Counted from the first letter of the stretch, positions 6,789-54,597 are shown. The stretch: 57,526 nucleotides of DNA from Prorocentrum cordatum (GCA_963575745.1 CAUYUJ010000018.1:62001-119526), one strand, 5' to 3'. Numbers and translations: made by a program. Notes: a model not told the origin generated them from the letters alone.

Positions 6789-8428
6789 TCGCAGCCCCCC
6801 AGGGATTGCAAGGCCCCGCTCAGGTCTGCGGGGTGCTTCGCTCCGCCGGGCCCACCGGCAGCCCTCGAAAGCGGCGACAACGTCGCAGATCGCAGCCCCC
6901 CAGGGACGGCGAGGTCCCGCTCAGGTCTGCGCGGTGCCTCACTCCGCTGGGCCCACCAGCAGCCCTCGAAAGTGGCGACAACGTCGCAGATCGCCGCCTC
7001 AGGGACGGCGAGGTCCCGGTCAGGTCTGCGGGGTGCCTCACTCCGCTGGACCCACCAGCAGCCCTCGAAAACGGCCACAATGTCGAAGATCGCAGCCCTC
7101 CAGGGGCGGCGAGGTCCTGCTCAGGGCCTCACTCCGCCGGATCCGCCAGCAGCCTTCGAAAGAAGCCACAATGTCGCAGATCGCAGCCCCCAGGGAACGG
7201 CGACGTCTCGCTCAATTCTGCGCGGTCCCTCGCTCCGATGGACCCATCAGCAGCCCTCGAAAGCGGCGACAATGTTGCAGCTCGCAGCCCCCCAGGGGCG
7301 GCGAGGTCCCGCTCAGGTGCGGTGCCTCACTCCGTTGGACCCACCAGCAGCCCTCGAAAGTGGCCACAAAGTCGCAGATCGCAGCTCCCCAGGGACGGCG
7401 AGGTCCTGCTCAGGTCTGCGCGGTGCCTCACTCCGTTGGACCCGCCAGCAGCCCTCGAAAGTGGCAACACCATCGCAGATCGCAGCCCCCCAGGGACGGC
7501 GAGGTCCAGCTCGGGTCTGCGCGGTGCCTTACTCCGATGGACCCACCAGCAGCCCTCGAAAGTGGCGACAATGTCGCACATCGCAGCTCCCCAAGGACGG
7601 CGAGATCCCGCTCAGGTCTGCGCGGTGCCTCGCTCCGATGGGCCCACCAGCAGCCCGCAAAAGCGGCGACAGCGTCGCAGATCGCAGCCCCCCAGGGACG
7701 GCGAGGTCCCGCTCAGGTCTGCGCGGTGCCTCACTCCGATGTGCCACCAGCAGCCTTCGAAAGCGGCGACAACGTCGCAGATCGCAGCCCCCCAGGGACG
7801 GCGAGGCCCCGCTCAGGTCCGCGCGGCGCCTCACTCCGCTGGGCCCACCAGCAGCACTCGAAAGCGGCGACAATGTCGCACATCGCAGCCCACCAGGGAC
7901 GGCGCGGTCCCGCTCAGGTCTGCGCGGTGCCTCACTCCGATGGACCCACCAGCAGCCCTCGAAAGTGGCGACAGCGTCGCAGGTCGCAGCCCCCCAGTGA
8001 CGGCGAGGTCCCGCTCAGGTCTGCGCGGTGCCTCACTCCGTTGGACCCGCCAGCAGCCCTCGAAAGTGGCAACACCGTCGCGGATCGCAGCCCCCCTGGG
8101 ACGGCGAAGTCCCGCTCAGGTCTGCGCGGCGCCTCACTCCGCTGGGCCGCCAGCAGCCCTCGAAAGTGGCGGCTGCGTCGCAGATCGCCGCCTCAGGGAT
8201 GGCGAGCTCCCGCTCAGCTCTGCGCGGTGCTTCACCCCGCTGGGCCCGCCAGCAGCCCTCGAAAGCGGCGGCAGCGTCGCAGATCGCAGCCCCCCAGGGA
8301 CGGCGCGGTCCCGCTCAGGTCTGCGCGGTGCCTCACTCCGATGGACCCACCGGCAGCCCTCGAAAGTGGCGACAGCGTCGCAGATCGCAGCCATCCAGGG
8401 ACGGCGCGGTCCCGCTCGGGTCTCGCGG
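6789..8428. repeat. Tandem satellite, ~101-bp unit, about 16 copies
   Basis: The anchor ccctcgaaag recurs about every 100 nt (~6863, 6963, 7062 ... 8257, 8357). Unit: cagccctcgaaagYggcgacaacgtcgcagatcgcagccccccagggacggcgaggtcccgctcaggtctgcgcggtgcctcactccgNtggRcccaccag. Confidence 0.97.
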
Positions 8429-11400
8429 TGGACAGGAGGCAGGAGGCGGGGGCAGGAGGAGGGAGACGCGACCGCGGTGCTCTATTCAAAACGAAAACCC
8501 AACCAATAAGGGTTAAGACAAATCGCAGTTGCAAGCCAGCGCGAGCATGTCGCGCTCGGCTCTGCGTGGGTCTGGCGAACCTCTTGGAGGAGGCTTCAAG
8601 CTCTCAGGAGCTCGATCCCATGGGTCGTCGGGCGCCGATTCAATTGAACAGGCGCTGACCGCGATCCATCGCCAGCTGCGCGGCGTGGGACAAGGCACGC
8701 CCTTGGCTGGGGGCGCCGAGTCGTCGAGCCGGTCGGCGAAGCCTCAACGGAGGTGTTCCTCCCACCGGGCGACGGCGCAGCAGAGGACAACGCGCCGGAC
8801 GAGCCAGGTTCTGGGCCCGCGGCAAGTTGCATGCTGAAGACAGACCGTGCCAGACGGTAGATGAACAGCTGAGCGGCGGATCGCAGCGGCGTTGCACTGC
8901 CCGCGTCAGCTGGCACGCGCCTGAGATGTTCCCGTTCACTAAGGCGGCGACGTGGCTGAGTAGGTGGACAAGGGTAGACGCGTAGAGAAAGGCGCACAAT
9001 ATGTCATGTGCACACGGGCTGGAATCGCATGCCGGCTGACCCGGCCCACGCGCGGTCTTTCCGTGAGCTGCGTCCTCCGCGACAGAGCTGACTGCATCAC
9101 GTGGCTGACTGGGAGAAACCAATATCGGTGCCAGCAGGCACTTGGAGAGGCGGCTGGAACCGAGCTTGGCCAGGGCCAGCCCGCGCGCGCGAAGGCGTGC
9201 AACTGGGCGCATCAGTGCCCCATCGCGCATAGCACAGCGAAAGGTTTCGCACTGGCTTGGCATGCCTCTGCCTCTGCGCACGCTCTGGCGCATAGCTGTG
9301 CATGCTGATGCCCGGCGCGCGCCGCGTGACACGCAGGCGCGCGCGCGCGCGCGGCGCCGCGCGCGCGCTGGCGCCACCGGGCACAAACGGCGCCCCATCG
9401 CGCGCAGCGCAACGCACTGGAGGCCAAAGCATTGCGCGCCGTGCTTGCGCAGCTGCATTACCAGGCATTAGCGATGCCCCGGGCGCGCTGAGCAGCGCGC
9501 GCATGCGCAAGGGCGGCGCGCGCCGCGAGGCTGGCGCAGCGCGCGCTGACAACGCGCATTCGCGCCCCCCGCCAGCGAGTCCCAAACGATAAGACAACTG
9601 CCGCAAACGGGTCATCCGCGAACGCTTCTCTGTCCGAAACTGGCGTGGAAGAAGGCGCGCAGGTTGCCGCGTGGCCGCGCGCCTCGACCGAATGGCAGCG
9701 AAAAGGCTCCAACGAAATATTGCGGCCGAGGGCGCGACAAACGCGCCAGCATGCCTGAAGCCGCGCGTTCCGTGCATAGCGCGTCCGAGGGCCAGGGCGC
9801 ACGGCATGGAATCAATAATAGAACGACAGGTCTTGTGGTCAGGCGGGGGGCGCAGCTCTGCCCTACATACTTTCCAAATGCACTCAACCTTGCTACCTTG
9901 TTGAATGGGCGAGTGGGCCGCGCGCCTGTGGCAGCGCTGACACGCGGTCCTGGCCAGGGCCGCCCGTCGCGCAGCACGCAGGCGGGGCCGCTTCACTGTT
10001 CTTCGGGGAAGACCCTTTCACTAGGCGTCCGGGCAATACGCGGCGCAACAGCATTGCTGGCGATATGCCTGAAAGCCTCATCCTGGAGCAGAGGCGGCGC
10101 AGACGATGGCGAAGCCGCTGTCGGACTCCGCTTCGAGCAAGCGTAGAATGAGGAAGCACGGCAGTGCGCTGTTGCCGAAAATGTCGACGGTGGCGACGAG
10201 ACGACGAGACCTACAATGACCAATTCGCGTGGCGTGGCCGTCGAGCTGGCTTCAGCTGGATGTGGCGACTGCAACGTTTGCCGGATGCGCGACTGGCCTG
10301 CTGCGGTCCACAGTCAGGACACCAACATGCATCGGTGACATCTGGTTGGTGGTGGGGTGCTCACCATGGCACCAAGATGGCGTGCCTCCTCCTCAGAAAG
10401 TCTCGATGGCGATGTGGGCACCTTGGGACTCGGACCTGCAAGGGGACGGACGCCAAGTTGAAGTTCGGAAAAACCGTCATGGTGCGCGGGCCCTTGGCTG
10501 CGGCCTTGGCGTGGAAACGCTCGGAGCGCACAGCGTGCTCACTAAGATGTACGCCTGCACAGCTGCGCACTGTCCGAACCCAAGCGCTGGCCCAGCCGCG
10601 CGGCGCAACGCAAGACGGCAAGACGACTGCGTTCTGCTGCCAGTGTCGGGAAGTTGTTTGTGTGGTGAGGGAGCCGAGGCGTCGCTGCCTCCGAAGGCGG
10701 TGCGCCCCTGCACCTGGCAATCTGTCTGTTCCACGCGACGGTGCAACCACAGGAGCACTTGCGGCTTGACATTCGCTCCATCGCGCCTCTGGATGCGTTG
10801 GGCGAGTTCCCCGAAGGGGTGCTGAACAACCATACGCACAAGGTGTTCAGGAACCGGAAGGCGGCACCAATGCGGAGTGGGGCAAGTGCGGATGTGCGTC
10901 CATCTCGGACTCTGCGCAGCTCTCGTGGATCGGTGCTAGAGCTGGTTTGCACAAGCTCCGCTACCAACTGGAATTGTGGGTGACAAAGGTGCGGATCCCA
11001 GGAATCCGCGCGGAACGCCAACAATTTATGTTTATGGCGTTCTTGCTCTTCGAGATAGACCTGGCGGCAATGGAACTAGGTGTGAGAGGGATGGATGCTC
11101 CATGAAGCCAGTCTGCTATACCCACCCGCTGGGGGACACAGCGCGCACTATGAGTCGGGATGCCCCTCAGAGACGCGTGCGCCTTCAGGGCAGCGCGCAG
11201 TGAGGTGAGAGGATGAGAGGCGCGGGTGTTCCCACCGGCCAGGACTGCGCCATCTTCCATAATAAGGAGGGTTATTTTCCGCACCATCGACTATCTTCTC
11301 TCCGCGCGCACGCTCGAGCGATGCGATGACGGCGGCGGGCGCGAACGAACCATACTCAGACGAAGACGAGGAGGAGGGGGAGGAAGAGGAGGAGGAGGAG

Positions 11401-13346
11401 GAGGAGGAGGAGGAGGGGGATGAAGAGGAGGAGGAGGAGGAGCAGGAGGAAGAGCAGGAGGAGGAGGAGGAGGAGGAGAAGGGTAGGACATGGAAAAAAG
11501 ACGATGACGATGACCTCCCCCTGCGCCCCCCCGAGGGCGACGGGTGAGAAGGATCTAGGGCTGACCCAACCACCGTTTGCGAATATTGCTTCCCGAACCG
11601 CTCACGAAGCGCTCGTTTTGCACAGCCTTTCTTTCCCTCCACCGAACGGCCGTGGACAAGGCCCTTGAACTGGTTCCGAGACGTTGCCGCACCGTTCGCG
11701 AACACCCGATCACGGACATGTCTGCCCCACCCTTCCGAACACATTCTACGGCACGCCCAGGCGGCGAGTGCCTCGAGGGTGCCCGCGCCACCCTGGCATC
11801 GGGCGAGGTCGTACGCGGGCTCCCCTTCTGCATGCTCCTCGGCCAGGAGGAGGGCCTCGCGCCGGAGCGCCCCTCGGCACCCCACCGCGACCACACGCCG
11901 CGACCCGCCGGCTCGCAGACCACGGGGTCTGCCAGGCAACTGGTGGCTCACAGCAGGCTGCGGGACCTCGAGCCAAAGCGGCCACGGTGAAATAGACGGC
12001 GCCATTCTCGGGGCGTCGCGGGACGCCCCCGCGGCCGCGGCCGAGTCCGCCCCGAGGCTCCGGTGCAATCGCACCCCGGGAGGTGCCCTGGTGCCGACTT
12101 GCAACCTGCAGGCCCAAACCCCCTCACGTCGCAAACAGAATCCTGACGGGCTGTGGCTTCGCCACTCTCAACCTCCTGGGGGTCGTTGGCGGGCCCCGTG
12201 GCCGTCAAAAAACGGCCAGGGAAGAGGAGCCAGACAGAGGGGAGGTCTTCAGCGTGTACCACTCCCAGGTCGAGGATCGACGATGACTCGGGGGACGCCA
12301 ACGCGGTACAGTCGGACTGCTGAAGTAAGCAACGTTGATGAAGGTAGCCCTCTCTGGCACCAATCAACGCCTGGGCGCACGAGGAGGGCTAGAGGAACAA
12401 CCACGGAATGACCTGAGCAACTGTCAGCCCCTTCCGAAGCCAACGCGGTCCTTATTTCAGCGTCTTGGCTGCACGGTGCACACAGATCACAAGTAGTCCG
12501 CGGACAGGGGCCGCGCATTGAACAAAGCGCGACGTCGGAGGTCTCGGGCACCACCTCCACGGTGCCGACGACGCAGGCCGCGGCGACAACGCGGCCGGGC
12601 CAGGGTGCCGAGGGCAACGGCGACGGCGAAGAGGTGTTTTGAAGGTTTCGGAGTTCTGTCTCGAAAGTCTTCAGGCGATCTTTCGGAGGTGTGCGGATGC
12701 TTTCGCACGGAGCTCGGACGTCTTCGGGATGACTTCAGAAGGTTTGGGGTGGTCTTCACAGGTCTCGAAGGTGCTCTGCAATTTGAATGTTTCCAGAGGG
12801 GTTCGGAAACTCGTTCATGATTTGTTGGCGTACGTTTTTAAGGGGGTTAGGGAAAGCTTTCGCTGGGGTCGAGTGTTGATGGCTTTCGGATGCTCGAGGA
12901 AAGCTCTGGGAGGTCTCAGACAGCGTGTTGTGTCCTCCGAGATTGCTCTAACTGTTGCTCGTGATTGCTGTGCGTATACGTACACCCCTCTTCCGCTCGG
13001 CTGGCGCCCCGCCAAGTTCCATGAGCATCGTGTAACTGATCCCCATCCTCACTGGCGTGGCCTGGGCCCCACTGGCCGATTTACACCCTCGATGGGGATG
13101 CAGGCTGCTCCCGTCAGGCTTCGAAAGGCCTATCCCCGGCTGGGGTGTGTGGCATGGTGGGGCTGGGATACCATGGTCCGGTGGGGATGCGGATGGGTTT
13201 AGCGATACTGATTCCAGGAGGGGTAGCAATAGAATTAGGAAAGGGAAGAATGAATACGGACTAAGAGCAGACTGAACCCCGCGGCAGACGGAACAGACTG
13301 GGACAGCTCGGCAGTCTCGAGGGGCTCGGGGCTGGCTACTGGTCGG

Positions 13347-14153
13347 TCAGCCCTTAGCCTGCTTGGCTGCCCTGCGGTCAGCCTTTGTCACGGAGTGGTA
13401 ACCTGACTTGATTGACGTCGTCGTTCGGTCTGCGCCGCAGACGTTGCACTTTACGGCCCAGAGCCGCGTCGAGGAGTCCTTGACCAGCTCGGTGTCGGCG
13501 CCCTTGCACATGTGGCAGGTCACATAATCCTTGCGGAGGAGGGAAGCACCAACCAGACCGAGGAGGCGGGGGTGATCTGAGCATGGCCAGGGCCCTTCCT
13601 CGAGGGAGAAGCCCCCAACCAACCCAGGGGAACTCACTCCTGGCTTATCTGGTCAGGGTCCCCTGTCCCCAAAGTCCTTGATGTACTTTCGCAGCACGCT
13701 CTCCAGGTGCTTGGGCAGGTACCGGCCCTTCAAAACCAGCTGACCGTCAGCGCCGGCTCCCTCCGCGCGCGCGGTGGCAGAACCGGCCACCGAGCCCTCC
13801 GTGCCAAATTCCGCCAACACGAAGGACACGACGTGGTCGGATGGCCGCTTAATCATCTGACAGATCTCGGCAAAGTTTACCCAGGCCACCCTCTTGGAGC
13901 CCACGCGGACCACCTGCGGAGGCTTCAACACGTGCTTCTTCGCTACCCCCAGCGTCGGGCACTTGTTCTCGACGATCTCGTACATACGCGCGAGCATCTC
14001 CTGATAGGTGTACTCTGGCCCTTTCGACCAGTCCACGCTGGTAAGCTGGACTTCTTTCTCATCCTCGTCCGCTTTGTCCCTCTTCTCTTTTTTCTCCTTC
14101 TTCGGCTTCTTCTTCTTTCCGAAATCAAACTCGGGCTCCCCCTCGTCTCCCAT
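13347..14153 (-). CDS. EIF2S2: Eukaryotic translation initiation factor 2 subunit beta; two exons (14153-13677, 13529-13347)
   Basis: N-terminal poly-Lys box (DFGKKKKPKK) and eIF2B/5 core YTYQEMLARMY...KPPQVVRVGSKRVAWVNFAEICQMIKRP.DHV..FVLAEFGTEGS...QLVLKGRY...ESVLRKYIK. This joins in frame to the C4 zinc finger DYVTCHMCK...KCNVCGA..TSIKSGY. Confidence 0.95.
13530..13676 (-). other. 147-nt non-canonical GA-AG intron in eIF2-beta
   Basis: ATC AAG|GACTTT...CCGCAAG|GAT TAT. Removal restores the conserved KYIK-DYVTC. CAAGGA is repeated at both junctions. Confidence 0.85.
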
Positions 14154-14226
14154 TATTCCTACTCTTGTCTAGGGCCAGCGAGTCGTCGTGAAAGCTGCAG
14201 GAGCCTGCGTCCTTGGACCAGATCAA

Positions 14227-14261
14227 CTTGCCAAAATTGCTTGAGCCAAAACGGCTACGGA
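14227..14261 (-). other. Genomic DinoSL copy (14261-14240, 21/22 match) followed by a truncated relic SL (14239-14227)
   Basis: The minus strand reads TCCGTAGCCGTTTTGGCTCAAG then CAATTTTGGCAAG (compare CCATTTTGGCTCAAG), ~75 nt upstream of the eIF2-beta ATG. Confidence 0.92.
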
Positions 14262-33571: not shown

Positions 33572-33895
33572 CGGCGACGACGACGACAACGACGACGACA
33601 CGACGACGACGATGACGGCGGCGGCGGCGAGATGCCCCAACGACCGCGGCCAGGAGGCCTCTGCGGCCCGCGCCTCCTCCAGCTGCGCGGCCAGCACGCG
33701 CGCGGGGTTGGCGGCGCCGCCGGCGGCGGCGGGCGCCTCTGTGCGCTGGGCGGCCGGTGGGAGGCGGCGGCGCCATCGCCCTCGGGCCTCCGCTGGCCTC
33801 CTTGGGCCTCGTCCTCTTCTTCCTGCCCTTCCTGCCCCTTTCTCCTCCTCCTCCCCCTCCTCCTCCTCCTCCGCCTTGTCCTCGTCCTCGACCTC

Positions 33896-33909
33896 GTCCT
33901 CCGCTTCTC
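33896..33909. repeat. Target-site duplication of the LINE (3' copy), gtcctccgcttctc
   Basis: Identical 14-mer at 38913-38926, immediately outside the SL. Confidence 0.9.
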
Positions 33910-33952
33910 TTGCCGCGTGGCCCAGGCGCTCGGTCACTCCCTCGCCCGCGCC

Positions 33953-36900
33953 CTACCGCCCCACGGCTAGGGCGACGACAGGCGCCAGTTCCAAAGCCTC
34001 CTCCCGTCTGAGAGGGCGGCCCAAAATGAAGCACTTCGCACGAATCGCACTGTACAGAAAATACGCAGCTATGGGAATCTCGCAGGACTTGCGAGACGGA
34101 TCCAGCACCCCCAGGCGGTCCAGATGGTCCCACGGGAGAACACGAAGCCTTAAGGTCTTGGCGGCGAGGGCATCGAAAGGGATGCAACACCAGTGATGGT
34201 GCATGTGGTCTTCGCCACCAGATTGTCGTGCGCACCCTAGTTTACAGCACGCATCTTCGGCAATAGACTTCTGGAATTGGCACTGGGTGAGCCAATTCTT
34301 AAAAACCGTGCGAAACCAGGCTGAGGCCAGAGCCGGCTTCAGCTTAGATGCGACGCGCCGCACCTCTGCCCAAGGGATCAGATCGAGACGCGAACCATTC
34401 CCAGGGAACCAGCTCCGAAGACGAGAATGGAGGAGCGAACGATTTGGGTCCGGGTGCAACGTCTGGGAAAACGCACGAGTTAACAATCGTTGGATTTTAA
34501 ACTTCTCACGACGGGGGTTCTCTACTTGCACGGAGGCGCATTCAGTCAGATGTTGGAGAAGGAGAAGGTGAAGGGGATGATCGGGATGTCCGTTACGTGC
34601 AGCATCCAAGTGTTGACATATGGCGGGGGATGACCAGTATTCAGGGGAGTTGACCAAAGAGAGTAAAGCCGAGACCACGGTGTTCTTCAGAGGCAGAGCG
34701 CAGACGCCGAAAACTTGGCTCCCAATCGTATGTGTCCCACGCTGCCCTCGTTCGGGCTGCTAGTGTCATCGCCCGCAGAGAAGGGATCTTTGGCCCTCCC
34801 ATGCGGACCACGAAAAGAAAGAGGCCCTGGCCAAGCCACAGGAAGGTAGGTGGAATATTCGAGCCAGCAGCACCGATTCGTCGTGGTCGATGCGAGGCGG
34901 GAGGGGAATGAACTGCGCCACACACGAGAGAGTCGAAGCAACACGAGAGGAGTACAGCATGGATGCGGTAGGGGTGGGGGAATGAATAACCGCCAACAGA
35001 CTCCCACGGGTGCGCCACTTGGAGATCGGGGCCTTCCAGGATTGTGCCTCATAGTCGGGTCCGATCCACATCCCCAGATATTTGATCATAGTCACAATAG
35101 ATAACTGCCCCCACCCAGGTCAAGTCAGGTCAGGTAAAGTTGGATCAGGTCAGGTGCGATCGGTCCCGCAGGAGGCAAGAGCTGGCACTTCGCTAAATTC
35201 AGACAGAGATTGGCGAGGGCGTTCGCATTGCCGAAGATGCGCTTGATCTTCGGAAATACTTCAGGCGAAACAATTACCGAACAAAGAACGTCCGCCCACG
35301 CGCGCACCTGTCCCCGCCGCATCAGCTCGACCGAGCGGAAGAAGTCCTGGGGGAAGGGCTCGAGACTTGCAGCAAAGCAAGTACCGCTGCCTGGGCAGCC
35401 TCGAATAATCCCCGCCAGGATCTGAAACAGATAACGCGTCTCCCCCCCGAACTTGGCGAAGCAGTGGGCGCTGGCATCAATCATTTGAATAAACCAAATC
35501 AGCGGACCTGGGACACGAATAGCGCTCAGCACCAGGAACAGCCAGGCATGGGCGAGAGACGGAAACGCCCGGGCAAAGTCGCACGCCAAGAGCGCGGGCA
35601 GTCGCTCTGCCGCCGACGGCAGCATCGAGAGGATACTGGATTCCGCGTCCACATCTATGATGTTCGTGCCGAACTGCCGCGCCCACCAAAAAAACCACGT
35701 TGACTGAAGTGGCCAACCTTGGCCCACTGGGCACTTAAAGCTCGGGCACAGACAGCCGCGGGGGTTTTGGCATCGCAGTTTTTTTGCCGAGAGGACGGAG
35801 TTCTGAGGCTTCCCGAACGGCACCGAAAGCGCGCCCCTCCTCCTCCTCCTTCGGAATGAAAGCTACACGTATATAACTGAACCCCATCACCATGTTCCCC
35901 CCTCCAATATCCAGACCATCACCTCGTCTAAAATGTCCGCGGCCATCGGCGCGCGCTGCCGGGCGGCGCAGGGAAGCATGTCTGGTCCAGGCTCGCTGTG
36001 GCGCACCAGAGACAGCTGCTTTTCAATCATTCGCTTGCTTGGAAGGGGGATGTTCGAGAGGTCTAGATGGCCCGTGAACTTATCAATGTAGAATTTCGCC
36101 GAGGCAGCGCGGATGGGCTTGGAATCAACAACAGGTCCCCAGTAGGACGGGATACATGCAGCAATCTCGCCGGGCGCCGTGCACGCGCCAAGCGGGCGCC
36201 TAATCCCTCGGAGCACAAGACGACGATCGACTGGGGCCCAGATCTTACATCGTTGTTGGAGCCGTCGTCGTTGCTGACTCAATCTCTTCATCGTCGCATT
36301 AGACTGCGATTATATTCCCATGGGCGCGCTGCGTATCCTCTCCTCCAGTCGCTGCTGCTGCTCCTCAAAGCCCTCCCGAATCAGGCGATCGATCGTCGTC
36401 GCGTACTCAGTTGGATACAGAAGCCACACCTTGTCTGCCATCAGATCCAGACCAAGATGTTCCCTAGCGAGCGGATGCGCGCGGAGTAAAGTAGACGCGA
36501 GCTGGGCGTCTTGCCGCCGCGCCGCCCGCCCCACAGATCTCAGGATAGTAATCTGCGCCAGCTGCGAGTCAGGTTCATCTGCCAGGAGAGAGTTGCGGGC
36601 CGCGCGAGCTGTTTCGCGCATCAGGTTCTTAGAATGGACTAGCTCGAGCGGGGGGGGCATGCTGGGCCAGTGCGTCGCATCGAGATAAGCTTTCGTCGTC
36701 AGTAGATCACACGTCGTGCTGAAAATGAATTTCGGAATCGGTCTCTCGTCGGGCGTCGACGATCGAGCCGGGCAAAATGCAACCGGAGTCGGGGCGTGAT
36801 ATGAGATGTTCTTGTGGCGCGTGATCTCAACCATTTCTTTAGTGTAACCAGTAGCAGCCATATTAGTAAGGGCCCAGCCAGGGACCGTAGTGAACATCCT

Positions 36901-37632
36901 ATATATGATGCTAGTGTGATCGCGGCCCGCGGAGAAGTGGGCGGGATCTGTCTGCTCGATCTCCACCAGCTGCGAGAAGAGGTGAGACCAGGCAGAGTCG
37001 CGCGCAAAGCGCCAAGATGCATACCCGTCTGCGGCTAACGCGGCAGCAGAGGGTACCAGCGGCTTCGGCGGGGCGGCAGCAAGTTCGAAATCTCCCACGA
37101 CCATGACCACGCGTTTGTCAGGTTCCTGGGCCGCAAGGGCCCTGTACCGAAGTACGCGGTTAATGATGCAGTTCCCCTCGGCTCGGCTAAGCCCAAAATT
37201 GTGGATGTTGTAGAGCGTGATCCACGCCCCAGACGCGCCCAGGTCGCTTCCACTCCGAGACATTCTCCCACGCGAAACCAGAACCGCAAGGGCTCGACTT
37301 TTGGTGATCTCTATGCCGCGCATAGATCCGCACCCTGGAGGGTGCTTTGGGACCAACGTGAGGACGCCACCCGCCTTAGCCGAAGGGCAGAAGGAAGTGA
37401 AGAGCTCCGCGTTCTTGTCGAAGAAATGCACCACGTCTTCAGCCTCGGACCTGGTCCCGCGGGTTGCCTGAACAGCGACGCAACTGGGAGGGCCCACCAG
37501 GGACTTCAAGTACTCGTACTTTTTGCCCCGAAGGGGAAAGTCGCGATGGAAAAGAGCTCGAGCATTCCAGCTAACAAAACTCAACGTGTCTCTGGACCCG
37601 CTGGACCCAGGACCAGAGACGGCAGAGAGCAT
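33953..37632 (-). pseudogene. LINE ORF2: AP endonuclease + reverse transcriptase + C-terminal zinc knuckle, multiply frameshifted
   Basis: APE: SWNAR, VQATR, YNIHN, VGDF, ISYHAP. RT: PGPD, AFIPK, RPLG, SQRGF, DFARAFPSLAH, GIIRGCPGSG, WADV, LNLAKC, KYLG. End: CKLGC...EDHMHHHWCC. Confidence 0.9.
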
Positions 37633-38679
37633 TAAAGACTCCACTGGGCGGGCGCCCTGTCCGCAAACAGGGCTTTGATGGGGGCCTCACAGACCGCCCT
37701 GTCGATCCCGAGGGTCTGCATGTTCTGCATCGCCCACTCGATGGCGGGGGGGTCGTCGGCGCCGTTCGCCGTGAACTTGAGGGCGGCCTTCCACAAGTGG
37801 CTGAGTTCACCGCGGTCGCGGTCAATGAAGCAGCGCTTCCCCTGGAACAGCTCCTCCATCTTCTTCTTGATGATATTGAGGCCCAGCTCGGTCTGGACCT
37901 GCTTCTGGTTCTTGTCCGTGGAGACGAACAATTCAGCCCGAATGCCTTCGGGAGTCTCGCAGTCGAAACGTCGCCGTCCAGCTTCACCAGGAAGGCGCAT
38001 GGCGGCCATCGCTTGGTTGACCTTGCGCGCAGCATACCCGGTGGCGCCACGAAAGGACAGCTTGTGGAGCTTCGCCACTGGGTCACCCTTGATGTGCCAC
38101 TCATCCTCCACGATGTTCGCGTCGTCCAGCCACGGCTTGATGGCCACCTGGACATGGGAGCGGGCCACCATGGAGCGTGAGCGAATCGTGATGATGGTCG
38201 GGTCCGTGGCGCGGTCGAAGCCGCGAGAAGAGGAGACGGGAGCTTTCGGCTCCCCAGAACGAACGATGCCCAGCGTGGTGCGCAGCTCGGCCACCTCCGA
38301 CTCGAGCTTCGCGAGCTTGGCGACGTGGAGAGAGCCGTGCCTCAGCTGCGGACATGCGCTCCTCCACCTGTTTGTCGCACGCCTGGAGGTGTTGGTGCAT
38401 GGTGTTGGACACGGCGGAAAGGGAACGTTGCATGCCTTCGATATGCTGGATGGGTGTCTTACGAGCGTTCTCGATGGACTCACGGAACGAATGGTAGTCC
38501 TCTGCCTGCGGCGTCGGGACGGGCGTGCCTGGAAGGGACGGCGCGCTGAACAATGATGAAGGGGTGCCAGCTTCACCACCAGCCAGGACGGGTGTGGGCA
38601 CAGGCTGACTCGATCCTGCCGTTCCAGTCCTTGGGGTCTGAAGGCGAGGTTCGCCCGTCTCTTGATCACGAAGAGCCAT
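37632..38679 (-). pseudogene. LINE ORF1 (coiled coil plus globular domain), one frameshift near 38330
   Basis: MALRDQ... then heptads (DKQVEERMSAAEARL / AKLAKLESEVAELRTTL), lying between the SL and ORF2. Its TAA overlaps the ORF2 ATG (TAATG, 37634-37630). Confidence 0.75.
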
Positions 38680-38890
38680 TGCGCCGCTGTGCTGGCACAG
38701 CACCCTGTCAAAGACAAAATGTACACGTTGACGCACAATCAGACAAAGAGGGGCTGAGAGAGTGCCCTGCGGGCGGTGGGGGCCTTCGCCGTGGGCCCTG
38801 CGCCCCAAGTCTGCCTGAGCAAGACTACGGGGGGGGGTCCAAAGCTAATCGCTGATTCTCAGGCGTCTATAGCCCTTCACAACGTTTAGC

Positions 38891-38912
38891 CTTGAGCCAA
38901 AATGGCTACGGA
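38891..38912 (-). other. Perfect 22-nt DinoSL at the LINE 5' end
   Basis: The minus strand reads TCCGTAGCCATTTTGGCTCAAG. Confidence 0.97.
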
Positions 38913-38926
38913 GTCCTCCGCTTCTC
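38913..38926. repeat. Target-site duplication of the LINE (5' copy)
   Basis: gtcctccgcttctc, identical to 33896-33909. Confidence 0.9.
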
Positions 38927-39484
38927 CTCTTCTTCCTCCTCCTCCTCCACGTATTCGTCCTCGTCCTCGTTCTCGTCTTCGTCCTCGTCCTCCTCCTCCT
39001 CCTCCTCCTCGTCCTCGTCCTCGTCCTCCTCATCCTCCTCCTCGGTCGGTCGGTCGGCCATAAGGGAACGAGTCTGAATCCCAGTCGAAGCTAAAAGAAG
39101 AGCGGTCGGCGGCAGAGAGAAAAAATGAGGCAACGATCGCGGCAGCGGGCAAACCTCGTGGGCAAAGAAGAGATACCCCACGAAGTCCACAGCTCATTTT
39201 ATATTGCCTCCATCGTACTTAAGGACCACATCCCAGAAATAACTTTGAGCACTCAGGAAAGTATCGAAACAGTGTCGAGCGAGTATCGCCTGCCAGGGCC
39301 CAACGCGTAAAAAACCTCCAGCTTCGGTACTTCCCTGGAGCTCGAAATTATTTCTGGCAATCCAGGCTAAGGTAGGCTGGAACATCACAAAGCTCATTCC
39401 CATAACCATGCAAGGCTTACTCAAAACCCCGGCTCCTGACGCATGGGTGGCAGAACGGCCTGGGGTAGTACGTCAACATAGTGG

Positions 39485-40200: not shown

Positions 40201-41126
40201 CATCAACATCAACAACAACAAACTCAACAAAAACCATTACGGCCCGCACAATTCTTGAGATCAAATGTGCCCCATGAGATGACATTCCAAAATGAGGGTC
40301 CCGATCCTCCTCCGTCGCCCAAATCATCCTCCTCGTCTTGACCACCCTCATCACGTCCACCGCGACTACCATCGTAGCAACGAGCATCCCCCCACCCGCA
40401 TCTCCCTTGGTATCCCCATTGGTATAACCGCAACCATCACAACTATGATCACCATCAGCATCACAAGCATCAACACAACCATCACCAACATCCCCATCGC
40501 CATCCGTACCAACACCACCATCATCATCATCATCATCAACACCATACGCTTTGTCATATGTAACATCCCCGTCATCACCACCATCCTCATGATCAGCGGC
40601 ATCAACATCCCTATTGCCTCAGCCACCATAAACAACGATTCAGCATCCTCATACAAACTCTTCCTTGCCTGCAGGTACGAGGACTCACACGTCAGGGTCA
40701 TCCGTTGCTTCCTTATCCTCCTCTTCTCTTCCTCCTCGTCCTCCTCCTCCTCCTCCTCCTCCTCCTCCTCCTCCTCCTCCTCTTGCTCCACCTCGTCCGC
40801 CTCGCCGTCATCAGCCTCATCATCGTCATCACCATCATCGTCATCACCGCCATCGTCCTCCACAGAGTCATCACCATCTGACCCACAATCGGGACAATCA
40901 TCATCATCGTCGTCATCGCCAGCGTCATCATCATCGTGATCGCCAGCGCCATCTTCATGGCCGTCGTTACCAGCATCACCATCACCATCAGCATCGTAAT
41001 CAGTATCCATATCCTGACCATGGCCATCATCATACCACAATCATCACCAAGCTCATCATCATCATGTCGCCTTCACCCTCATCATACCACAATCATCATG
41101 AACACCAGCGCCACCAACATCATCAT

Positions 41127-41784
41127 CAACGAAAAGAGGCGGGTCTTACGCGAGATGGCATAGCGACCTTACGTGGCACGGCAGGCGCCGCCGATTGCCG
41201 CCTCACGGGGTTCGACCACCATTATCCTCCTCCGAATCCTCATCCTCACCCTCGTCATCACAACCACCTTCAACATCAGCACCGCCAACATAATCATCAA
41301 TACCAGCATCATCATCATTATCATCATCATCACCACCACCATCATCAACATCACCAACATCATCACCATCAACGAAAAGAGCAGGGTCTTACGCGAGATG
41401 GCATAGCGACCTTACGTGGCACGGCAAGCGCCACCGAGAGCCGCCTCACGGGGTTTGACCGCCATGCTCCACCTCCTCCGAATCCTCATCCTCACCCTCA
41501 TCACCACCACCAGCAGCATCAGCACCATCAACAACATCATCATTAAAACATCAACATCATCGCCATCAACATCAGCATCACCAGCAGCAGCATCAACGAA
41601 AAGAGGCGGGTCTTACGCGAGATGGCATAGCGACCTTACGTGGCACGGCAGGCGCCACCGAGTGCCGCCTCACAGGGTTCGACCGCCATCCTCCTCCTCC
41701 GAATCCTCATCCTCACCCTCGTCATCACAACCACCTTCAACATCAGCACCGTCAACAAAATCATCAACCAACATCACCACCACC

Positions 41785-41846
<62 letters not shown>

Positions 41847-42385
41847 AATCATCATCACCATGATCATCAACATCATCATCAACGAAAAGAGCAGGGTCTT
41901 ACGCGAGATGGCATAACGACCTTACGTGGCACGGCAGGCGCCGCCGATTGCCGCCTCACGGGATTTGACCGCCATGCTCCACCTCCTCCGAGTCCTCATC
42001 CTCACCCTCATCACCACCACCATCATCAGCATCATTACCATCAACAACATCAGAATTACCAGCATCAACATCATCACTATCAACATCAGCATCACCAGCA
42101 GCAGCATTAACGAAAAGAGGCGGGTCTTACGCGAGATGGCATAGCGACCTTACGTGGTACGGCAGGCGCCACCGAATGCCGCCTCACACGGTTCGACCGC
42201 CATCCTCCTCCTCCGAATCCTCATCCTCACCCTCATCATCACCACCACCATCAGCAGTAGCACCATCAACAAGATCATCATTACCAGCATCATCATCATC
42301 ACCATCACCATCAGCATCACCAGCAGCAGCATCAACGAAACGAGAAGAGGCGGGTTTTACGCGAGATGGCATAGCGACCTTACCT
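41127..42385. repeat. Array of six conserved ~90-125-bp cores separated by variable (CAT/CAC/CAA)n spacers
   Basis: The core aacgaaaagag..gggtcttacgcgagatggcatagcgaccttacgtggcacggcaggcgcc starts at ~41127, 41370, 41594, 41880, 42108 and 42333. Confidence 0.95.
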
Positions 42386-43139
42386 GGCCCCAAGAGCGCT
42401 CCCAAGGCTCCCAAAAGCGCCTCAAGAGGCCCAAGAGGCGCCCAGGAGGCCCCAAGAGGCGCCCAATAGGCCTCCAAGAGGCTGCCAGGAGACCCCCAAA
42501 AGGCCACAAGAGGCTCCCCGAAACGCTCCAAGAGGCCCCTGGGACCGGCAAAAAGCCCCCAAGACGCAAGAGAGGCCCAACAGAGCCCCAAGACGGCCCC
42601 AAAGAGCGCCCAAGAGTGTCCCAAGAGCGCTCTAAGAGGGACTCTTCATGTGCGTGCTGCCCACTCCCCTGATCGAGGCAAATCCTCGGGGCATCGTCTC
42701 TGGATGGTGGGGTTACTTGTTTGGTATGCGGGCGCGCGAAGCAAGTCGAACGCCGAGCACGCTAGGGCGGGCCGCGCCGTAGCGAAGAAAACTACAGCGA
42801 AGTAAACTGGTGGGGCTACCTTGCTGGTTACAGCCGCAGACGAAGGCGCCAGCGGCGGGTCGAGTAGGCTCGGCCTACGAGCGAACCTAATTGCCGGCGT
42901 GAGCGCAAAAGAAAACAGGACCTACCGCCGGGCGAAGCAGCTGCGCTGGGGGCCGTGCTGCAACCGCCGAGGCTGAGAACCAGCGCGAAGGGTAGGGACT
43001 GCGAGTTGCTGGGGCTGCCAGGAAGCTGCAAACGTGCGGGTACCATAGAAGCTGGATCGCCAGGTACGTGAATTGGACCTAATTGGTGGGGCTACGCGAA
43101 GCGTCAGAGGAGTGCACCCAGCGCGATCCGAATGCGCCG

Positions 43140-47466: not shown

Positions 47467-47963
47467 GTGAGCTCCATTTTTTTCGAGGCCAGGTGGGTGC
47501 TAAGACGCCGATCCAGTAGCAGTTCGCCCGGCAACCGGGACACAGAAAAGCCAGAGGCCGCCTTGGGAAACCTCAAGCACGGCCGCTCGACCTCTCCGAG
47601 ACCTCTGTGCAGATCCGCAGGGAGGGAACTTAAAGGGGGGGCGCTTGAGCCATCGAGGTCACGGACATACAAGTCGACACGAAAATGCAATGCCGCGGGA
47701 CCCTGCGAAAAACGACCCCTTTTGGCTGAAATGGGTCGTTTTCTCCGGCGGCACGCATTCGTGAGGCGTGACCCCAAGGCGGCCCATCCCCGAGACATTA
47801 GCTAACAAAGGCGTGATAAACACTTGGCATGTGAGCTCCATTTTTCTCGAGGCCAGGTGGGTGCTAAGACGCCGATCCAGTAGCAGTTCGCCCGGCAGCC
47901 GGGACACAGAAAAGCCAGAGGCCGCCTTGGGAAACCTCAAGCACGGCCGCTCGACCTCTCCGA
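47467..47963 (-). repeat. 3' terminal block B1-A2-(42-nt spacer)-B2
   Basis: The B copies are 133 nt with 2 mismatches seen. A2 is 189 nt and identical by eye to A1. Confidence 0.95.
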
Positions 47964-53921: not shown

Positions 53922-54110
53922 CGCTTGAGCCATCGAGGTCACGGACATACAAGTCGACACGAAAATGCAATGCCGCGGGACCCTGCGAAAAACGACCCCT
54001 TTTGGCTGAAATGGGTCGTTTTCTCCGGCGGCACGCATTCGTGAGGCGTGACCCCAAGGCGGCCCATCCCCGAGACATTAGCTAACAAAGGCGTGATAAA
54101 CACTTGGCAT
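53922..54110 (-). repeat. 5' terminal repeat A1 (189 nt)
   Basis: Identical to 47642-47830; contains a stem-loop aaaacgaccc...gggtcgtttt and an SL-like 22-mer. Confidence 0.95.
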
Positions 54111-54597
54111 AACTAAATTATGCAACATAAATGTATATATATATATATAGATGTATCACGCAGGAAGTTGCGAGCGGGAGCGCGCCCGAAAGCTCAGACG
54201 AACAAAGAAGTTGGTTCAGGTGAGGCCCAAGAGAATATACCATTGAACCAAGTACCCTCAGGAGGGCGCAATTGATCTAAACGCTCCTGCGTGGGGCCAG
54301 CGCTGCGCGGGGGGTGGCCATGGGTACGAGTGAGAGGCTCCAAGGCCCTTCCCCTCGCCCTCAGAGCACCGCTGGGCGTGTGCGATCGACGCCCCAGCCA
54401 CCCTGCGAGTCTGCTCGACGCGGGCCGTTCGCGCTGCAGGCGCGCGCGGCCTGCAGCGCCGCGCGGCTCTCGTCGGCGCAGGCGCCGACGGCCGTGCCCG
54501 CGCACCAATGCTCGACGTTCCAGAACGATCGTTGCCGAGGCTGGGGGCGTCTCTCCGGCCCTCACCTGGCGCGAGCCCCACCCTCCCTGGTCACCAT

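Follow-up and report, generated by a model that had tools for sequence, protein, structure and literature searches.

A dinoflagellate LINE that begins with a perfect spliced leader and shares its leader-bearing 5′ head with a distant LINE

Dinoflagellate genomes are full of retrocopies tagged with the spliced leader (SL), the makers of these copies are poorly described, and almost no promoters are known in these organisms. Here we describe a long interspersed element (LINE) of Prorocentrum cordatum whose own 5′ end is a perfect dinoflagellate SL (DinoSL), situated in a stretch of 57,526 nucleotides (nt) (GCA_963575745.1 CAUYUJ010000018.1:62001-119526); this whole stretch is called the window, and positions are counted from its first letter. 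SL relics on retroposed host genes, a sign of “mRNA recycling” (Slamovits & Keeling 2008), are well known (PMC12014239, PMC7245778, PMC6050394, PMC5585692). Genes annotated with “RNA-dependent DNA replication” were found by Song et al. (2017) to be enriched among SL-tagged retrogenes (PMC5585692), an enrichment that may reflect the phenomenon described here, unrecognised. The elements thought to make SL retrocopies are described, in the extracts of those accounts that bear on their structure, with no mention of an SL at their own 5′ ends, and no report of an SL-headed LINE was found in the literature searched by full text.

Retroelements bound up with SL sequences are familiar from other organisms: SLACS, CZAR and CRE of trypanosomatids and NeSL-1 of nematodes are elements without long terminal repeats (non-LTR elements) that are specific for SL genes and use a restriction-like endonuclease. 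In the trypanosomatid L1Tc/ingi elements the first 77 nt, known as Pr77, constitute a conserved internal RNA polymerase II promoter (PMC1874656, PMC3383444, PMC4748587, PMC8190864), which binds TBP and SNAP50, both also present on the SL gene promoter (PMC8190864). The SymbioLINEs of Symbiodinium (de Mendoza et al. 2018) possess target-site duplications (TSDs) and conserved 5′ and 3′ untranslated regions (UTRs), and lack poly(A) (PMC5890265). Finally, a positive-sense single-stranded RNA virus of Symbiodinium bears the DinoSL, an instance of “molecular mimicry” (Levin et al. 2017, cited in PMC9651163).

The Prorocentrum element is a non-LTR element of 5,003 nt (33910-38912, minus strand) lying between exact 14-bp TSDs. 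Read along the minus strand, a host (GAG/GAC)n repeat leads into the TSD GAGAAGCGGAGGAC, which is followed by TCCGTAGCCATTTTGGCTCAAG, by 4,981 nt more that end in ...CCACGCGGCAA, by the second GAGAAGCGGAGGAC and by host repeat again. The sequence TCCGTAGCCATTTTGGCTCAAG, the reverse complement of 38891-38912, matches the DinoSL at 22/22 positions, with zero bases between SL and TSD. The chance expectation of a perfect 22-mer is 0.00, and the only other close match in the window, at 14240-14260, has one mismatch. With up to one mismatch permitted, the 14-mer (GTCCTCCGCTTCTC on the plus strand) occurs in the window only at 33896-33909, next to the 3′ end of the element, and at 38913-38926, next to its 5′ end; its expected count is 0.06, and two or more matches arose in 0 of 100 shuffles. 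The bases adjoining the two copies differ, so that the repeat is exactly 14 bp. It flanks the whole unit, as it does in a LINE. Inside the duplication the order is SL, 233-nt 5′ UTR, open reading frame 1 (ORF1), ORF2 and 3′ UTR. The 3′ UTR comprises 43 nt (33910-33952, minus strand) behind the ORF2 stop codon (TAG, 33953-33955) and closes with ...GCGGCAA; there is no run of A, and a host-type poly(A) remnant is absent. A preliminary description, made from the window sequence, had proposed both this order and the direct contact of a perfect SL with a TSD, and both are borne out by the coordinates and by the uniqueness of the 14-bp repeat.

Both flanks of the element come from one (CTC)n/(CTCGTC)n tract (33830-33902 and 38924-39043), which fits a single interrupted locus, and the G+C content of the element is 59% compared with 63% for the window. 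The element entered a (GAG)n·(CTC)n tract by target-primed reverse transcription, with a 14-bp duplication as the result. Because the TSD directly abuts the SL, the first base of the integrated RNA was SL nucleotide 1; its 3′ end was of LINE type and lacked poly(A). The preliminary description went a step further in naming an SL-trans-spliced RNA as the template: the start at SL nucleotide 1 stands, while trans-splicing itself is an interpretation, and a leader encoded in cis, with an internal promoter, would explain the same DNA. The flank-SL junction of this copy is known from the assembly, as contigs from a DNA sequencing run (X1) stop at the flanking repeat. No join across the element, of the kind expected from an empty site, was seen in the sequencing-run contigs; one long joint in these contigs, from 33620 to 37095, was disregarded, its 20-nt side lying in repeat DNA. 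The window holds no second copy of the LINE. When the element is removed in silico together with one TSD copy, 38927-39065 and 33700-33895 (minus strand) join into an open frame, MADRPTEEEDEED..., that runs, in the same orientation as the LINE, through the acidic repeat that received the insertion. This frame may represent a host exon broken up by the LINE or nothing more than low complexity, and a host-exon call is unsafe because the repeat is of low complexity.

The coding part of the element places it among the LINEs. One search for homologous proteins returned nothing at E ≤ 1e-3; an exhaustive HMMER search, with a 458-amino-acid (aa) N-terminal segment of ORF2, retrieved 361 relatives at E ≤ 1e-3, the best of them about 30% identical and the closest named one a short Prorocentrum cordatum protein fragment. 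Fourteen of the 150 relatives listed, picked for length (960-1,508 aa), were scanned against Pfam. RVT_1 was above the cut-off in 14/14, and Exo_endo_phos was present at E ≤ 1e-3 in 12/14 and above the cut-off in 9/14, in the region that aligns with the N-terminal ORF2 segment of the LINE. In the LINE's own ORF2, Pfam matched RVT_1 only, and weakly (E 1.9e-4, 21.6 bits against a cut-off of 29.6); its ORFs gave no Pfam match for the endonuclease. Through its relatives and tblastn, the N-terminal part of ORF2 (35128-37686, minus strand) can be assigned an endonuclease of apurinic/apyrimidinic (APE) type, a linker and a reverse transcriptase (RT), and the C-terminal part continues in another frame (33953-35119, minus strand). 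By homology, therefore, the element is an APE-type non-LTR retrotransposon (LINE) of a dinoflagellate.

The change of frame in ORF2, near 35119-35128, was located with twelve full-length relatives. In tblastn all 12 follow one frame from about 37,600 to about 35,130-35,176 and another from 35,083-35,119, and all 12 align over about 800 aa of ORF2, RT included. Further, a sister copy in X1 has about 11 extra bases exactly at this site. The idea of several frameshifts inside the RT was rejected, as the relatives keep one frame there save for one short side match in 1/12. ORF2 also contains five premature stop codons, three in the N-terminal part (36312 TAA, 35889 TGA, 35865 TAG) and two in the C-terminal part (34768 TGA, 34762 TAG). 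ORF1 (37632-38679, minus strand) opens with the first ATG of the element (38679), behind a 233-nt leader, changes frame near 38340 and stops with TAA at 37634-37632; its N-terminal half is coiled-coil-like, and no Pfam family, and no DNA methyltransferase (DNMT) domain, was found in any frame. Its stop codon overlaps the ORF2 ATG (37632-37630) as TAATG (37630-37634, minus strand). A TAATG overlap of stop and start is usually tied to termination-reinitiation.

ORF2 being interrupted by five premature stops and a frameshift, and ORF1 by a frameshift of its own, this copy is dead. The term “full-length” in the preliminary description hence holds for the structure and fails for the coding capacity, which is broken. 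Decay of about 3% from the last functional ancestor onwards would account for the five stops, and decay of this extent leaves, by our own estimate, a chance of about 1 in 5 that SL and TSD stayed untouched. The death of the copy before its insertion and its death afterwards are therefore both compatible with the data.

The SL is the outermost part of a longer 5′ head. This head of about 125 nt (38789-38912, minus strand) recurs on L001, a contig of 2,007 nt and the only one returned when metagenome contigs were scanned once for the SL-unit junction. It is made up of the SL (38891-38912), a 53-nt unit predicted to form a hairpin (38838-38890), a C/T run, a second, degenerate SL and about 35 nt more. 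The unit begins with GC and is identical in L001 at 50/53 positions. Its predicted hairpin, a long stem, takes in the last 4 nt of the SL, and the fold z-scores are -2.9 for our copy and -3.75 for L001. Two of the three unit differences between these copies fall in predicted pairs and preserve pairing, which, with two sequences, can be taken only as a hint. The run behind the unit is nine C in our copy (38829-38837), CCCTT in L001, and CCCC or CCCT in X1 contigs. The second SL relic, CCGTAGTCTTGCTCAGG (38814-38830), sits about 57 nt downstream of the first SL, behind the nine-C run, and is preserved as CCGTAG....TCTTGCTCAGG, with a 4-nt gap relative to its counterpart in L001, TCCGTAGCCTGTCTGGCTCAGA. 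That counterpart matches the SL at 17/22 positions, a value reached in 0/300 shuffles of the contig. Neither our LINE nor L001 has truncated, stacked relics directly behind the SL.

On L001 a CGT/CCT-rich flank is followed by a perfect SL, the 53-nt unit, CCCTT, the second SL-like 22-mer, about 35 alignable nt, an intact ORF1 of 408 aa and the start of an endonuclease ORF, with no ATG at the place corresponding to TAATG. In blastn the two heads are identical in 112/130 columns (86%), with a value of 96% for the first 75 nt, and the rest of the DNA does not align; the endonucleases are 26% identical (180 aa, E 7e-7) and the ORF1 products 19% (188 aa, E 9e-7). The head is thus 86% identical while the proteins are nearly beyond recognition, from which the head, as measured on two full copies, is either much younger than the LINE bodies or under much stronger constraint, and has probably been passed between LINE lineages. 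The L001 LINE, like ours, adjoins a triplet-repeat tract, and a target preference of these LINEs for such tracts is possible.

Twelve contigs of X1, which consists of short contigs at low depth, share the SL and the unit; they match our copy from within or beside the C run through the unit and then diverge. Five of the 12 go on behind the C run with TCCGTAGC or TTCCGTAGC, which is again the start of the second SL, and in the other seven the SL and 52 nt are followed by sequences unlike ours and unlike one another. The departures of the second relic from the SL are the same in L001 and two X1 contigs and partly the same in our copy, which argues that the entire head descends from one ancestor. 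Further X1 contigs match our copy either at 100% identity or with 8-13% difference, so that the subfamily has a few diverged copies. The preliminary description was open to two doubts, that other copies would extend upstream without an SL and that the junction was an assembly chimera. The first was answered in its favour, though on little material, by the SL heads of L001 and several X1 contigs, and the second is made less likely by L001, an independent assembly with the same type of flank-SL-head junction. On this material, the SL-bearing head seems to be built into these elements rather than peculiar to one copy.

Beyond L001 and X1, the searches were negative. Of two further runs, X2 gave nothing and X3 low-complexity matches only, and the unit had 0 matches in the viral contigs and genome contigs searched. 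Against 140 comparison loci, tblastn with five protein pieces of our LINE and two of L001 matched only L001 to itself, and blastn of the head against these loci and the window found only our copy and L001. Pfam detected no RT or endonuclease in 27 ORFs downstream of an SL in 16 GC-rich contigs, a weak negative in that Pfam also missed the endonuclease of our own copy. Rfam gave nothing at the gathering threshold for the whole window; around the head (38700-39000) at E ≤ 10 it returned noise only and no ribozyme family, again a weak negative. Literature string searches for the unit sequence yielded nothing relevant.

How, then, does this element compare with the described systems? Like the host retrogenes, it has a DNA-encoded DinoSL at its 5′ end, derived from SL-carrying RNA and reverse transcription, and in both cases more than one leader copy speaks for more than one cycle (as reported for the retrogenes in the sources cited above). 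It differs from them in that its cargo is the retrotransposon itself (ORF1 and ORF2), its 3′ end is without poly(A) and its leading SL is complete. Moreover, its older relic is full length and about 57 nt downstream, whereas theirs are truncated and directly stacked, and its SL belongs to a conserved head common to distant LINE lineages. With the SymbioLINEs it has in common Exo_endo_phos and RVT_1 in ORF2, an upstream ORF1, TSDs and the lack of poly(A) (PMC5890265). In contrast, SymbioLINE-Dnmt carries a DNMT domain in its ORF1, and the excerpted text of PMC5890265 leaves an SL at the 5′ end of SymbioLINEs unmentioned. The likeness to Pr77 concerns the head: a 5′ segment of about 77 nt conserved over divergent LINE and short-interspersed-element-like elements, in a host that trans-splices all mRNAs. 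Our head shows such conservation across divergent elements (86% identity against 19-26% for the proteins, on two full heads). Pr77 is a means of obtaining a defined 5′ end, and is tied to the transcription factors of the SL gene. However, it is not SL sequence, its transcripts are unspliced and it includes a hepatitis-delta-virus-like ribozyme, whereas the LINE head starts with the SL and matched no ribozyme family. The elements specific for SL genes resemble ours in a life cycle tied to SL sequences. Yet SLACS, CZAR and NeSL insert into SL RNA genes, and the present LINE is of APE type and occupies a (CTC)n tract, flanked by a TSD of its own; its SL lies inside the TSD and is therefore part of the inserted unit. 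The Symbiodinium virus is, like the LINE, a dinoflagellate parasite whose RNA bears the host leader at its 5′ end, though an RNA virus and not a genomic retrotransposon. Collectively, we rate the element as a LINE of APE type that is ordinary but for its unusual head, which is conserved and bears the leader.

The DNA directly upstream of the SL is that of the host, so the RNA of every generation must start exactly at SL nucleotide 1. The explanation we favour, to which we give a probability of roughly 45%, is that trans-splicing at the terminal AG of the inherited SL renews the leader in each cycle. The genomic copy would be transcribed by read-through inside a host transcript, and this transcript would be trans-spliced at the AG terminating the inherited SL (...CTCAAG|G...). 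A fresh leader would thereby be swapped for the old one at the same position in each cycle, and each new insertion would begin with a perfect SL. As the SL ends in AG and is followed by the G of the unit, the inherited SL itself offers a splice acceptor. The degenerate SL downstream would be the fossil of an earlier 5′ end, no longer renewed after the head had been extended upstream, which fits repeated cycles through SL-carrying RNA. Renewal of this kind would match the way in which all dinoflagellate mRNAs acquire their 5′ ends. Of the SL-like matches of at least 16/22 in the window, 6/7 are on the minus strand, that of the LINE included, which suggests a one-directional gene array with which the LINE is co-oriented; the strong SL relics of the window all share its orientation. 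Trans-splicing, read-through transcription and the transfer of the head between lineages are what we infer from these sequences.

Several points weigh against renewal by trans-splicing. The upstream flank of our copy is purine-rich and a poor acceptor context. Host retrogenes, such as the one at 14261 in the window, show truncated stacked relics that result from splicing at an internal AG, and re-splicing at an internal AG of the LINE's SL would leave the SL, CCATTTTGGCTCAAG and then the unit. The LINE heads have no such relics, so that exclusive use of the terminal AG must be assumed. Further, trans-splicing alone leaves it unexplained that elements with proteins about 20-26% identical show 94% conservation over the 53 nt that follow the acceptor. 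The unit begins with GC, a donor dinucleotide permitted in dinoflagellates (PMC6616646), and the seven X1 contigs diverge right after it, which would fit an independent small RNA. Finally, the family-level claim rests on one metagenome contig and short contigs of one run, and since L001 was found through a search for the SL-unit junction, the presence of the head on it is partly ascertainment.

Some of these points would be accommodated by a leader that is encoded in cis, a reading we consider possible though doubtful. A head resembling an SL RNA gene would set the polymerase start at SL nucleotide 1, the SL would be inherited and kept by selection, and the LINE mRNA would be born with a host-like 5′ end, needing neither read-through nor trans-splicing. 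A head 86% identical next to body DNA that cannot be aligned is what would be expected of an internal promoter, stacked truncated relics are missing behind the SL in both our copy and L001, and Pr77 provides a precedent in the trypanosomatids, another trans-splicing lineage. The giant-virus-type contigs described below appear to encode the SL in cis, so that other dinoflagellate parasites would do the same, and the TTTT of SL relics has been proposed as a promoter element (Song et al. 2017, PMC5585692). On the other hand, dinoflagellate promoters are barely known and a promoter role of the head is putative. The second SL, full length and degenerate, fits naturally into this scheme only as a duplication, and the flanks being host DNA, no conserved upstream element is possible and all signals must be internal. 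In its most explicit form, which we regard as rather unlikely, the head of about 125 nt would be a portable 5′ module captured by different LINE lineages. It would encode in cis the SL and an SL-RNA-like hairpin, serve as an internal promoter or 5′-end-defining element, and give the mRNA a mature look without trans-splicing.

A different origin of the conserved unit is offered by template switching, whereby the first 75-79 nt or so would be an unspliced SL donor RNA, that is, the 22-nt exon and an intron starting with GC, joined to the LINE as a chimeric retrocopy. U6-L1 chimeras in mammals may serve as an analogue. The GC right after the exon agrees with reports of GU or GC downstream of the SL in SL genes (PMC6616646), SL and unit together measure 75-79 nt and are predicted to fold as an exon hairpin and a long stem, and a host gene would be expected to show the 94% conservation of the unit between very different LINEs. 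The variable length of the C/T junction and the seven X1 contigs in which SL and 52 nt precede unrelated sequences point the same way. The conserved head, however, extends past the unit and through the second SL, whose common derived changes indicate that the whole arrangement was inherited and not re-made each time; and even if the head once arose in this manner, later generations would still need an RNA starting at SL nucleotide 1. In addition, six contexts resembling SL RNA genes, albeit on contigs from other dinoflagellates (L007, L008 twice, L014 twice and L020), start with GTAC and have a hairpin followed by a T run, and the unit has neither feature; Rfam gave nothing, and the unit is unlike the Fugacium SL-gene sequences in the supplement of PMC6616646, to the extent of that supplement. 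We thus consider a chimeric retrocopy improbable. Less probable still is that the locus is a singular event or an artefact, in which a LINE transcript trans-spliced by chance was retroposed or an assembly chimera happened upon a 14-bp repeat. The flanks are of low complexity, their junction with the SL rests on the assembly while X1 contigs stop at the repeat, and the window has no other copy. Yet the 14-mer is not of the simple-repeat type and occurs at the two ends only (expected 0.06; 0/100 shuffles), an independent assembly shows the same flank-SL-head layout with a different LINE, SL and unit are common to 12 X1 contigs, and the 3′ end is LINE-type without poly(A), unlike that of a host-type processed retrocopy. 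Renewal by trans-splicing at the inherited AG remains the explanation we prefer.

Sequences resembling the SL were also encountered in other settings. Contigs L022-L140 from IMG/VR, many of them GVMAG, are AT-rich and of giant-virus type, and have a perfect DinoSL 21-mer before many genes. Among the 131 distinct SL contexts with enough flank, the upstream 25 nt are at least 80% A+T in 111, often with a motif like TTTTTATTTTTAAATATAAATTTTA, and the base preceding CCGTAG is A in 125. An ATG follows within 150 nt of the SL in 130/131, and 116 of these 130 have a frame that stays open over at least 60 codons. Judged from this arrangement, viral genes seem to encode the host leader in cis at their 5′ ends, and no report of a viral cis-encoded leader was found in the literature searched. 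Contigs L007, L008, L014 and L020, which were binned in bacterial metagenome-assembled genomes (MAGs), supply the six contexts of the form SL|GTAC... with a hairpin and a run of 5-6 T; on L008 two of them are 870 nt apart and have an identical upstream motif. These contexts look like true dinoflagellate SL RNA genes contaminating prokaryote MAGs.

Within the window, 14130-14261 on the minus strand bears the signature of a host retrogene: an SL relic (21/22) has a second, truncated relic (CAATTTTGGCAAG) right behind it, and an ORF starting MGDEGEPEFDFGKKKKPKKEKK lies about 90 nt past these relics. An exact 189-nt repeat (about 47644-47832 and about 53924-54112, minus strand) ends in an SL-like 22-mer, TCCGTGACCTCGATGGCTCAAG (16/22), and CG. 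The sequences downstream of its two copies are unrelated, and it could represent either a gene of SL-like type or the terminus of a different repeat. A degenerate SL-like 22-mer, ACCGTGGCCGCTTTGGCTCGAG (17/22), lies at 11967-11988 on the minus strand. Finally, self-blast revealed tandem arrays at 6789-8430 and 41034-42388, with periods of about 100 nt and about 250 nt and 82-88% identity between copies.

For the biology of dinoflagellate retroelements, an SL-headed LINE would mean either that host trans-splicing re-creates the 5′ end of the element in each generation, or that the element uses the leader it carries as a start signal of its own. Both readings would explain how such a LINE is kept at full length without an ordinary promoter. 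The SL followed by the 53-nt unit provides a sequence tag with which LINEs of this kind can be found. The head parallels Pr77 of the trypanosomatid LINEs, which belong to the other large group of organisms that trans-splice every mRNA, and its being younger or more constrained than the coding parts suggests a modular exchange of 5′ ends between LINE lineages. If the head is indeed a portable module encoding the leader in cis, the giant-virus-type contigs would represent a second, independent use of the same trick by parasites of dinoflagellates.

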